4,861 nucleotides of DNA. It comes from a virus (lineage: Duplodnaviria > Heunggongvirae > Uroviricota > Caudoviricetes). The first letter of the stretch is position 1. Each line of letters begins with the position of its first letter. The translations under genes were made by a program, and so were the position numbers. Location: the IMG/VR virus record IMGVR_UViG_2711768012_000016; one strand, written 5' to 3'. This document shows, piece after piece, positions 2,531-4,861 of the stretch. The notes under the pieces are model-generated. The model was not told the origin of the DNA, made no database searches, and saw only the letters and a list, made by a program, of their open reading frames with translations.

Positions 2531-2634
2531 TTAAATTTAGCACTGTTAAAAATTTAATCCTTAACCGGAGGGATTTCTGCACCCTCAAATCATCAGGAGA
2601 CCACCCGAAAGGGCGGGGAGCAGTCACACATCTG

Positions 2635-2664
2635 TTTCCGATAGCCCCGTTCTAATGCTACACT
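2635..2664 (+). promoter_or_regulatory. Candidate sigma70 promoter for the QueH-like gene (TTTCCG -35, extended -10 TGcTACACT)
   Basis: -35-like TTTCCG at 2635-2640, 18-bp spacer, TG at 2656-2657 and TACACT at 2659-2664. The predicted start site is only a few nt before ATG 2678, and no SD is present, which is consistent with a near-leaderless mRNA. Pattern match only. Confidence 0.25.
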
Positions 2665-2677
2665 CTTTGATATTTTT

Positions 2678-3364
2678 ATGACCCCAATAAACATATTTAT
2701 GACAGTTGCTGATTTCAAACGGCCCAAATTGGAGCTCCCAAACGGGGCAAACAAACTACTACTGCACTCTTGCTGTGCTCCATGTTCCGGTGAGGTGATG
2801 GAGGCGCTTCAGGCCTCGGGAATCGACTACACCATCTTTTTCTACAACCCGAACATTCATCCTCAGAAAGAGTATTTAATTCGTAAGGATGAGAATATTC
2901 GCTTTGCTGAACAACACGGCGTGCCGTTTATTGATGCTGATTACGACACAGACAACTGGTTTGAACGAGCCAAAGGAATGGAATGGGAGCCCGAACGAGG
3001 GATCCGTTGCACCATGTGTTTTGACATGCGTTTTGAGCGGACAGCGCTGTACGCCGCTGAAAATGGTTTCAGTGTGATCAGCAGTTCACTGGGCATTTCA
3101 CGCTGGAAAAATATGCAGCAGGTTAACGACTGTGGGCGGCGAGCCGTCGCGCATTATCCGGGCATGGTGTACTGGGATTATAACTGGCGCAAGCAGGGCG
3201 GCTCGTCCCGTATGATTGAAATCAGCAAGCGCGAAAAATTCTATCAGCAGGAATATTGTGGCTGTGTGTATTCTCTGCGCGATACCAATCTACACCGCAA
3301 ATCTCAGGGACGCCCTCTTATCAAAATTGGTCAACTCCACTACGGTAAAGAAGAGAAGGAGTGA
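2678..3364 (+). CDS. queH: QueH-type epoxyqueuosine reductase-like protein (DUF208 family Fe-S enzyme), 228 aa
   Basis: Intact ORF carrying the motifs I associate with DUF208/QueH: [11 protein letters not shown] near the N-terminus, [31 protein letters not shown], and EYCGCVYS near the C-terminus. Cysteines at 32, 33, 36, 111, 114, 152, 194 and 196 fit a 4Fe-4S cluster plus additional metal-site arrangement. Stop TGA at 3362-3364. No SD before ATG 2678. Confidence 0.7.
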
Positions 3365-3385
3365 TTTTATGGGGCACCTTTCTGA

Positions 3386-3415
3386 TTGATTTCATATTGG
3401 CGAGGTAAGTAGAAT
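3386..3415 (+). promoter_or_regulatory. Candidate sigma70 promoter (TTGATT-N18-TAGAAT) reading into the second masked stretch
   Basis: TTGATT at 3386-3391 and TAGAAT at 3410-3415. The same two hexamers recur at 3981-4008. An 8-bp stem (3434-3441 with 3463-3470) lies just downstream in the predicted 5' leader. Confidence 0.3.
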
Positions 3416-3893
3416 GACTGCGGGTGCTTGAGGCTATCTGCTTCAGGCATGAACACCAAAAGGCAGATAGAGAAAAGCCCCAGTTAACATTACGCGTCCG
3501 GCAAGACGCNNNNNNNNNNNNNNNNNNNNNNNNNNNNNNNNNNNNNNNNNNNNNNNNNNNNNNNNNNNNNNNNNNNNNNNNNNNNNNNNNNNNNNNNNNN
3601 NNNNNNNNNNNNNNNNNNNNNNNNNNNNNNNNNNNNNNNNNNNNNNNNNNNNNNNNNNNNNNNNNNNNNNNNNNNNNNNNNNNNNNNNNNNNNNNNNNNN
3701 NNNNNNNNNNNNNNNNNNNNNNNNNNNNNNNNNNNNNNNNNNNNNNNNNNNNNNNNNNNNNNNNNNNNNNNNNNNNNNNNNNNNNNNNNNNNNNNNNNNN
3801 NNNNNNNNNNNNNNNNNNNNNNNNNNNNNNNNNNNNNNNNNNNNNNNNNNNNNNNNNNNNNNNNNNNNNNNNNNNNNNNNNNNNNNNNNNNNN

Positions 3894-4415: not shown

Positions 4416-4769
4416 ATGGCACATATACAACTGGTCAAACAAACCTCTTCCGGATTACTTCTCCCGGCGACGCCGGAGAGTTGCGATTTTCTGCATCAAA
4501 TCAAAATAGGTGAGTGGATACACGCAGACTTTAAGCGTGTGTGTAACTACGCATTCCACAAGCGTTTTTTCAAACTCCTGCAACTGGGTTTCGATTACTG
4601 GACTCCGGTCGGTGGGGCGATCACGCCTCGCGAACGAAAACTGGTGTCCGGTTTCGTTGATTACCTGTGTGAATCAGTAGGCCGGGAACATACGCCAGCT
4701 CTGAGCGAAGCCGCAGAGCAATTGAGGTGTACTGGCAATAGCGGACACTACCATTTGTTCTTTTTTTAA
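4416..4769 (+). CDS. Phage nin-region-type hypothetical protein (tentatively DUF1367-like), probably truncated by a frame break at a T7 run
   Basis: ATG 4416 has SD GGAG at 4405-4408 (7-nt spacer). The product MAHIQLVKQTSSGLLLPATPESCDFLHQIKIGEWIHADFKRVCNYAFHKRFFKLLQLGFDYW... resembles, from memory, a conserved lambdoid prophage family that neighbours ninG. The ORF ends ...HYHLFFF* at T7 (4761-4767). The adjacent frame is open from 4769 to the window end (SSHLMIFFPEGCRGDIPQTRVTTLTIVENLN...). The ORF-track TTG start at 4374 has no SD. Confidence 0.5.
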   Translation: MAHIQLVKQTSSGLLLPATPESCDFLHQIKIGEWIHADFKRVCNYAFHKRFFKLLQLGFDYWTPVGGAITPRERKLVSGFVDYLCESVGREHTPALSEAAEQLRCTGNSGHYHLFFF

Positions 4770-4861
4770 GCAGCCATCTGATGATATTTTTCCCTGAAGG
4801 CTGCCGGGGAGATATTCCCCAGACGAGAGTGACGACGCTGACGATTGTAGAAAATCTCAAT

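Follow-up and report, generated by a model that had tools for sequence, protein, structure and literature searches.

A queH cassette with its predicted native promoter in lambdoid prophages of Escherichia coli: a probable accessory route to queuosine for the lysogen

The stretch of DNA analysed here (4,861 nucleotides of a Caudoviricetes virus, IMG/VR record IMGVR_UViG_2711768012_000016; hereafter the window) corresponds to the early-right part of a lambdoid prophage and carries a queH gene on its plus strand. We consider it likely that the gene encodes an ordinary QueH and is an accessory, host-benefiting gene, which would provide the cobalamin-independent step from epoxyqueuosine (oQ) to queuosine (Q) in the lysogen. 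According to our proposed explanation, the product would be a functional iron-sulfur epoxyqueuosine reductase that does not depend on cobalamin and converts oQ34 to Q34 in tRNA-Asp, tRNA-Asn, tRNA-His and tRNA-Tyr. queH and the native extended -10 promoter that goes with it would have been picked up by a lambdoid phage from the chromosome of one of the Enterobacteriaceae, and the captured gene would now move as a 0.74-kb accessory cassette in the slot after a DUF977 gene. As a lysogenic-conversion trait, the cassette would most likely enable the lysogen to finish queuosine where no cobalamin is to be had.

Family, fold and motifs of the prophage protein

An intact open reading frame (ORF) of 228 amino acids (aa), whose translation contains EYCGCVYS, can be read from the plus strand at 2678..3364. 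An earlier note on this DNA had taken its product for a QueH (DUF208) enzyme, and this was borne out by a match to Pfam PF02677 (QueH) over essentially the whole profile (positions 1-174 of 175; E=1.9e-65; 220.6 bits, with a cutoff of 23.5). The match is far above chance, and the assignment of the ORF to the QueH family can be regarded as secure. A scan of the protein against NCBIfam gave no match, though the Prokaryotic Genome Annotation Pipeline (PGAP) names it QueH, and was judged uninformative. The nearest solved structure is QueH of Thermotoga maritima (7LC5; phmmer E=5e-22, residues 27-203). An AlphaFold2 model of the prophage protein (predicted local distance difference test score, pLDDT, 76; predicted template modelling score, pTM, 0.79) was compared with the PDB by Foldseek, and the top five matches were all T. 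maritima QueH entries (E=3e-12; target-normalised template modelling score, TM, 0.84; root mean square deviation 2.7 A). The predicted structure, which the earlier note had put forward for comparison with T. maritima QueH, shows the same fold. Enzymes of the PP-loop/adenine-nucleotide-hydrolase type ranked below QueH with far weaker scores.

Six cysteines of the prophage protein (Cys25, 26, 104, 107, 187 and 189 in 221-aa numbering) all align with cysteines of T. maritima QueH, and this family set (CC...CxxC...CxC) is invariant across an alignment of 30 close homologues. The position of T. maritima Asp13 is occupied by Cys29 (CCAPC, not CCAPD). Of the conserved Cys/Asp ligands considered in the earlier note, the cysteines align and the aspartate does not; at its position the prophage protein has the majority state of the family: among the 150 best family representatives at 50% identity, 109 have CCAPC and 3 have CCAPD. 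By this survey, aspartate at the position is not family-defining. The PDB also contains the T. maritima mutants C9S and D13N, the latter as 9DCO.

The ORF is intact, as previously described, but the conserved start gives a shorter product than the 228 aa that had been assumed. At the first ATG (2678), strain A10 and the plasmid-borne copies read ATT, whereas the second (2699) is kept in all 91 copies compared and is also the start chosen by PGAP. The queH product is therefore most likely 221 aa long as predicted from ATG 2699; QueH homologues measure 214-222 aa. In the PHROGs resource, the profile for QueH (phrog_3217) covers residues 34-221 only, leaves the N-terminal 33 residues outside and is labelled 'unknown function'. 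Phage annotations apparently begin at an internal methionine, which drops the CCAPC motif from the phrog_3217 family and may explain this label in phage resources.

A mosaic cassette with its own predicted promoter

The limits of the queH unit were determined by blastn in five other prophage contexts: phage HannyBb, the Qin-like prophage of E. coli B and C, a prophage of O157:H7, a prophage of ST131 and a divergent prophage of strain A10. The left edge lies at 2628 in four of these and at 2651 in the most divergent one (A10), while plasmid-borne copies align from about 2635. The right edge falls at 3368-3370 in three of the five contexts, and in the other two homology continues into hok. What surrounds the unit varies, with a zinc-ribbon ORF, a methyltransferase remnant, nothing or a reverse ORF upstream, and hokD, a restriction-modification pair of NgoMIV type or a DUF1971 gene downstream. 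The immunity and replication modules of the prophages that carry the cassette also differ. Taken together, the tight shared limits and the varying neighbours and modules indicate that queH is a mosaic accessory unit, occupying a variable slot downstream of the DUF977 gene, and not part of the replication-module core. In other prophages the same slot holds hok/sok, restriction-modification or methyltransferase genes. The placement of queH between replication and nin/Q-type genes agrees with the earlier note, and the possibility, raised there, of a universal core component of the replication module is answered by the counts: queH occurs in 995 E. coli genomes, whereas 4433 match a 1.8-kb stretch that includes its flanks.

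A hairpin at 2591-2606 (CCACCC-GAAA-GGGCGG) stands just upstream of the left edge and has a perfect CCGCCC/GGGCGG stem in strain FDAARGOS_944. It has no T-run and is thus no canonical terminator; it may mark a mosaic junction.

Within the cassette, the predicted extended -10 element TGcTACACT (Table 1) is accompanied by a weak -35 region (TTCCGA, 2636-2641), with a predicted transcription start near 2671. The sequence TGCTACA(A/C)T is also found upstream of chromosomal queH in Scandinavium, Kluyvera, Enterobacter and Symbiopectobacterium at the same spacing to the conserved ATG, although the upstream DNA of these loci is otherwise unalignable with that of the prophage. On a broader scale, TGnTAnnnT occurs 45-85 nt upstream of codon 8 in 20 of 80 species' loci, compared with 2% expected (binomial 1e-16, for loci that are not phylogenetically independent), and 19 of the 20 have it at 52-73 nt. 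Plasmid-borne copies retain the extended -10 as well. That prophage, plasmid and chromosomal loci have this element in common indicates that the cassette brought the gene's native predicted promoter along with it. The candidate promoter with an extended -10, previously suggested from the sequence alone, thereby gains comparative support from its conservation, beyond a consensus match. A structured leader was not apparent: when the 170 nt before the start were folded as RNA, the predicted structure was no more stable than that of shuffled sequences (z=-1.15), and Rfam matched only sok and tRNAs, with no riboswitch or structured leader for queH.

Origin and selective constraint

Outside Escherichia, the closest relatives of the prophage protein are chromosomal QueH proteins of Scandinavium (92% aa identity), Kluyvera (91%) and Enterobacter (89-90%). 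QueH evolves slowly across Proteobacteria: identity is still 75-86% in comparisons with Sphingomonas or Pseudomonas. Among Scandinavium, Kluyvera and Enterobacter, the chromosomal surroundings of queH are not of phage type but consist of ordinary metabolic genes (a short-chain dehydrogenase, a family 28 glycoside hydrolase, isocitrate dehydrogenase and chorismate mutase) and genes for DeoR and LysR regulators. The neighbourhood is conserved within each of Erwiniaceae, Serratia and Pectobacteriaceae, as expected of a housekeeping gene. By these comparisons, the prophage gene is assigned as an orthologue of the housekeeping queH of related bacteria.

No disrupted copy was seen among the 91 queH sequences compared, which come from prophages, IMG/VR and related loci. 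Among 21 distinct prophage alleles, the ratio of nonsynonymous to synonymous substitution rates (dN/dS) has a median of 0.022 and a range of 0.02-0.05, with dS up to 0.45; pairs of chromosomal orthologues give the same values (0.02-0.03). These ratios indicate that prophage queH is under strong purifying selection, with no sign of relaxed constraint or of a change in function.

Distribution in genomes, phages and plasmids

The queH cassette was detected in about 18% of complete E. coli genomes (995 of 5426), nearly always as a single, chromosomal copy. About 985 near-full-length copies lie in prophages that differ in their immunity and replication modules. queG was found in every one of the 5426 genomes (matches with at least 80% coverage); the presence of queG in the host was a point that the earlier note had raised for checking. 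IMG/VR holds queH on 189 viral contigs. Among the 50,697 phage records of GenBank, HannyBb is the sole isolated phage with queH, where the gene is annotated 'hypothetical'; the remaining matches are unannotated metagenomic fragments or doubtful giant records.

In E. coli B (ATCC 11303) and E. coli C, queH lies just upstream of hokD-rem in the Qin-like prophage. K-12 was inspected in a single genome, MG1655, which lacks queH and has ydfXW-flxA-ydfV-relBE in place of this segment of Qin. The comparison indicates that Qin of K-12 has lost, or had replaced, its replication and queH part. At the place of the K-12 genes relBE-ydfV-flxA-ydfWX, strain ATCC 11303 has ydaT, an O-like gene, DUF977, a methyltransferase remnant and queH, followed by hokD-rem.

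The promoter-plus-queH unit is also present in 20 plasmid records, of which 16 are from Klebsiella and 15 are typed as conjugative; the three that were inspected are IncF plasmids. In the Klebsiella plasmids (L168 and L170; IncFIB/IncFII) queH is flanked by TonB-family fragments, and in a Salmonella IncFII plasmid (L169) it adjoins fecCDE. On Serratia chromosomes (L103), tonB is located directly downstream of queH. This repeated adjacency to TonB and iron-uptake genes may reflect retained donor synteny, or a functional link to iron or to TonB-dependent (B12) uptake.

Proposed function and alternative explanations

E. coli has no de novo synthesis of cobalamin and must import it. Four E. coli enzymes depend on cobamides, QueG among them (PMC11841063), and QueH is the cobamide-independent alternative to it (PMC6461909). 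Frey et al. (1988), as cited in later papers, reportedly found the reduction of oQ to be cobamide-dependent in both E. coli and Salmonella. Since QueG needs cobalamin that E. coli cannot make, the cassette likely serves to complete queuosine without it. Furthermore, since every genome has queG, the mobile queH invariably joins another enzyme that serves this step. The suggestion that the prophage tunes the Q status of host tRNA can thus be refined to an added, cobalamin-independent route beside QueG. Spread on conjugative plasmids as well as in prophages argues for a benefit to the cell rather than for a phage-specific role. Insertions in queG of E. coli K-12 cause a nickel/cobalt phenotype like that of tgt (PMC9508795), so the last queuosine step is physiologically not silent. 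We infer activity on oQ-tRNA, expression from the repressed prophage and a fitness benefit under cobalamin limitation.

Several observations weigh against this explanation. A generic scan for sigma-70 -35/-10 sites called none on the plus strand upstream of queH, and such a scan misses the extended -10 because the -35 region is weak. By direct reading, no Shine-Dalgarno sequence precedes either ATG, in line with the lack of a Shine-Dalgarno-coupled junction that had been pointed out earlier. No intrinsic-terminator-like site was found on the plus strand past the queH stop. With neither a terminator nor a Shine-Dalgarno sequence, expression may be low; the chromosomal orthologues likewise have no terminator after the gene and no Shine-Dalgarno sequence before it. 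Moreover, queH is co-oriented with the early-right operon and would also be transcribed in lytic growth. At the protein level, the residue equivalent to Asp13 of T. maritima is a cysteine, and the CCAPC subtype has no solved structure as far as we checked. Finally, deletion of queG did not change growth in one study (PMC11841063), and in published work oQ and Q differ little in their physiological effect in E. coli.

An unlikely alternative, though the strongest of those considered, is that queH serves the phage itself, in that lytic expression from the early-right operon adjusts Q and oQ in host tRNA and improves the decoding of NAU/NAC codons in phage genes. The orientation of queH and the absence of a terminator between it and the replication genes would fit this, as would the presence of queH in an isolated, viable phage (HannyBb) and the investment of the prophage in translation through four tRNA genes. 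However, the NAU fraction of early (0.541) and late (0.543) prophage genes does not differ from that of host genes (0.564; Fisher p=0.47), and the idea of codon tuning, which the earlier note had included, was rejected on this ground. The four prophage tRNAs, Ile2/Met(CAT), Arg(TCT), Thr(TGT) and Gly(TCC), do not decode NAY codons and include no queuosine-tRNA; a link between queH and these genes was rejected from their anticodons. In addition, conjugative plasmids, for which there is no lytic cycle, carry the same promoter-plus-gene cassette, the cassette has kept the predicted housekeeping-type promoter seen with the chromosomal orthologues, and tRNA turnover in a lambdoid lytic cycle is probably too slow for much effect.

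Less probable still is that queH is a neutral hitch-hiker, acquired by illegitimate recombination, still undecayed and useless to both phage and host. In favour of this, QueG is present in the host anyway, much of what cryptic prophages carry is junk, an IS600 lies inserted close by in the same window, and K-12 MG1655 is without queH with no known consequence. These points are countered by the intactness of all 91 copies, by divergence among prophage alleles to a dS of 0.45 at a dN/dS of only 0.02-0.05, by the large number of near-full-length copies in prophages with different immunity and replication modules, and by the independent mobilisation of queH onto plasmids.

A different substrate, such as a 7-deazaguanine derivative in phage DNA or some other epoxide, with a role in DNA modification or anti-restriction, seems very improbable to us. 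Phages do use the 7-deazaguanine pathway for DNA modification (PMC6884629), related prophages have restriction-modification and methyltransferase genes in the same slot, and a cysteine replaces Asp13; yet CCAPC is the majority motif of the whole QueH family, identity to chromosomal QueH is 89-92% at the same dN/dS with no sign of neofunctionalisation, and the known phage systems never include QueA, QueG or QueH (PMC6884629). No tgt/dpdA, folE, queC, queD, queE or queA was present among the annotated genes of the FDAARGOS_944 prophage (32 kb, integrase to baseplate), and no DpdA/Tgt-like transglycosylase or folE/queC/queD/queE in the 13 kb around queH of HannyBb. The description of queH as standing alone is consistent with the lack of any other queuosine or 7-deazaguanine gene in the annotated 32 kb, and the same comparisons speak against the earlier suggestion of a substrate other than tRNA epoxyqueuosine. 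A role as a defence system was rejected, as PADLOC gave no match for QueH or its neighbours.

Neighbouring genes and other features of the window

The coordinates of the queH features are given in Table 1.

Table 1. Positions of the queH cassette and its predicted elements in the window.
Feature	Position	Strand	Basis
Mosaic queH cassette (promoter region, short leader, coding sequence, about 6 nt past the stop; ~0.74 kb)	2628..3370	+	blastn, five other prophage contexts
Predicted extended -10, TGcTACACT	2656..2664	+	TG at 2656-2657, -10 hexamer TACACT at 2659-2664; conserved in all prophage alleles
Predicted queH coding sequence, 221 aa + stop	2699..3364	+	PF02677, 7LC5 match, model fold, PGAP start and product name, start-codon conservation, dN/dS ~0.02
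CCAPC motif, Cys25/Cys26/Cys29	2771..2785	+	aligned to T. maritima Cys9, Cys10, Asp13 (7LC5); invariant in 30 close homologues
CxxC motif RCTMCF, Cys104/Cys107	3008..3019	+	aligned to T. maritima CERC; invariant in homologue alignment
CGC motif EYCGCVYS, Cys187/Cys189	3257..3265	+	aligned to T. maritima YCGCVFS; invariant in homologue alignment

The genomes FDAARGOS_943 and FDAARGOS_944 are 99.8-100% identical to the window over its unmasked parts, with shorter spacing across both masks. In FDAARGOS_944 the prophage is integrated beside ybhA, and its genes follow the order cI-like repressor, cro, ydaT, O-like gene, ydaV, DUF977, zinc-ribbon ORF, queH and hok/sok. Then come a small ORF, DUF1367, DUF1364, DUF1133, the four tRNA genes (24276-24586 of locus L002), lysis genes and morphogenesis genes. 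A position of tRNA genes after DUF1133 is usual in Stx-like lambdoid phages.

Directly downstream of the cassette lies a hok promoter-like site (TTGATT-18-TAGAAT, 3386-3415, from the sigma-70 scan), and the Rfam antitoxin RNA sok (RF01794; 117 bits) extends from about 3422 into the mask, with the hok/sok locus at 3386-3597. The masked stretch 3510-3893 overlies hokD of this type I toxin-antitoxin locus, judged from FDAARGOS_943, FDAARGOS_944 and thousands of other records; the N-run is 93 nt longer than its counterpart in the two nearest genomes, and its exact content is what we infer from them. The masked gene had been considered a possible queuosine-pathway partner, and every matching record has hokD there instead. 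In the O157:H7 strain Z1768 prophage (L005, 5872-7882), a DNA cytosine methyltransferase and a restriction endonuclease of the NgoMIV family occupy the position of hokD, which marks the region just 3' of queH as a hotspot for accessory and defence cargo.

The other mask (1216-1677) falls within ydaV (789..~1679), which encodes a DnaC-like ATPase, and exceeds its FDAARGOS_944 counterpart by 144 nt, which points to a different allele or to an unfaithful mask length. The zinc-ribbon ORF (2117/2174-2530; PGAP start 2174, 118 aa) has a CxxC...CxxC core and a basic coiled C-terminus and belongs to phrog_1621 (unknown function). It fills the gap between DUF977 and queH only in the prophage type of the window; others have the methyltransferase remnant. 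At the right end, DUF1367 is cut at about 4722 by the terminus of an IS600 element (IS3 family; 4722-4861), whose transposase C-terminus is encoded on the minus strand. The DUF1367 remnant in the window corresponds to profile positions 1-102 of 198. FDAARGOS_943 and FDAARGOS_944 both lack this IS600, and in FDAARGOS_944 the gene is intact, so that the window must derive from another, IS600-rich genome, perhaps a Shigella-like one.

Relation to known systems and significance

The prophage protein resembles T. maritima QueH (7LC5/7LC7/9DEU) in its full-length family match, fold, six cysteines and NPNIHP motif, and presumably catalyses the same cobalamin-free reaction. It differs in having Cys in place of Asp13, in being encoded by a prophage gene, and in residing in a host that already has QueG. 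QueG carries out the same last step of queuosine formation and co-occurs with queH in every carrier genome, but it is non-homologous, requires cobalamin and is encoded by a core chromosomal gene. Acinetobacter baylyi ADP1 reportedly keeps both QueG and QueH, a finding ascribed to Zallot et al. in 2017. Staphylococcus aureus also retains both, expressed differently (PMC13443448), and offers a parallel in which two non-homologous enzymes of differing cofactor demand buffer against cofactor shortage. The pairs MetH/MetE and NrdJ/NrdAB (PMC6461909) similarly combine cobamide-dependent and cobamide-independent enzymes; unlike them, the second enzyme here comes from a mobile element and is found in roughly 18% of strains.

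Phage 7-deazaguanine clusters (DpdA with FolE/QueD/QueE/QueC; PMC6884629) are another instance of phage-borne genes of the queuosine/archaeosine pathway. They act on DNA and combine the early (preQ0) part of the pathway with a transglycosylase, whereas here only the last, tRNA-specific enzyme is present and no transglycosylase. As a mode of carriage, queH comes closest to the lambdoid morons, or lysogenic-conversion genes, of which bor and lom of lambda are examples. Like them, it is a single accessory gene within a phage operon, variably present and probably of benefit to the lysogen; its predicted promoter would add to the resemblance. It is dispensable and has discrete mosaic limits, being absent from Qin of MG1655 and syntenic in E. 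coli B. It departs from these morons in that no terminator of its own was found and in that its cargo is a tRNA-modification enzyme, not a surface or virulence protein.

The enzyme family itself is already known and well characterised, so that no new biochemistry is involved, and NCBI names the protein QueH in bacterial annotations; it is the vehicle that appears new. Hutinet et al. (2019; PMC6884629) found no homologues of QueA, QueG or QueH in the viruses they analysed, and our literature search for QueH/DUF208 with phage or prophage returned no report of a phage-borne QueH. The carriage of a gene for tRNA queuosine maturation by temperate phages is new or under-appreciated.

The laboratory strains E. 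coli B and C, which have queH, and K-12 MG1655, which does not, are predicted to differ in oQ versus Q when cobalamin is lacking, a difference that would be relevant to studies of tRNA modification. More tentatively, and at somewhat less than even odds, we posit that lambdoid prophages of E. coli and IncF plasmids of Klebsiella and Salmonella, as mobile elements, disseminate among QueG-containing Enterobacteriaceae an enzyme that matures queuosine independently of cobalamin, by which Q versus oQ under cobalamin scarcity would become a horizontally acquired, strain-variable trait. The cobalamin importer BtuB is also a receptor for phages and colicins. As pure speculation, the cassette could lower the cost of resistance through loss of btuB; in that case queH would be the first auxiliary gene of a phage known to act on the final, tRNA-specific step of queuosine formation. 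The independent capture of queH by phages and by conjugative plasmids suggests that a cobalamin-independent route is genuinely selected for in enteric bacteria that are unable to make B12.

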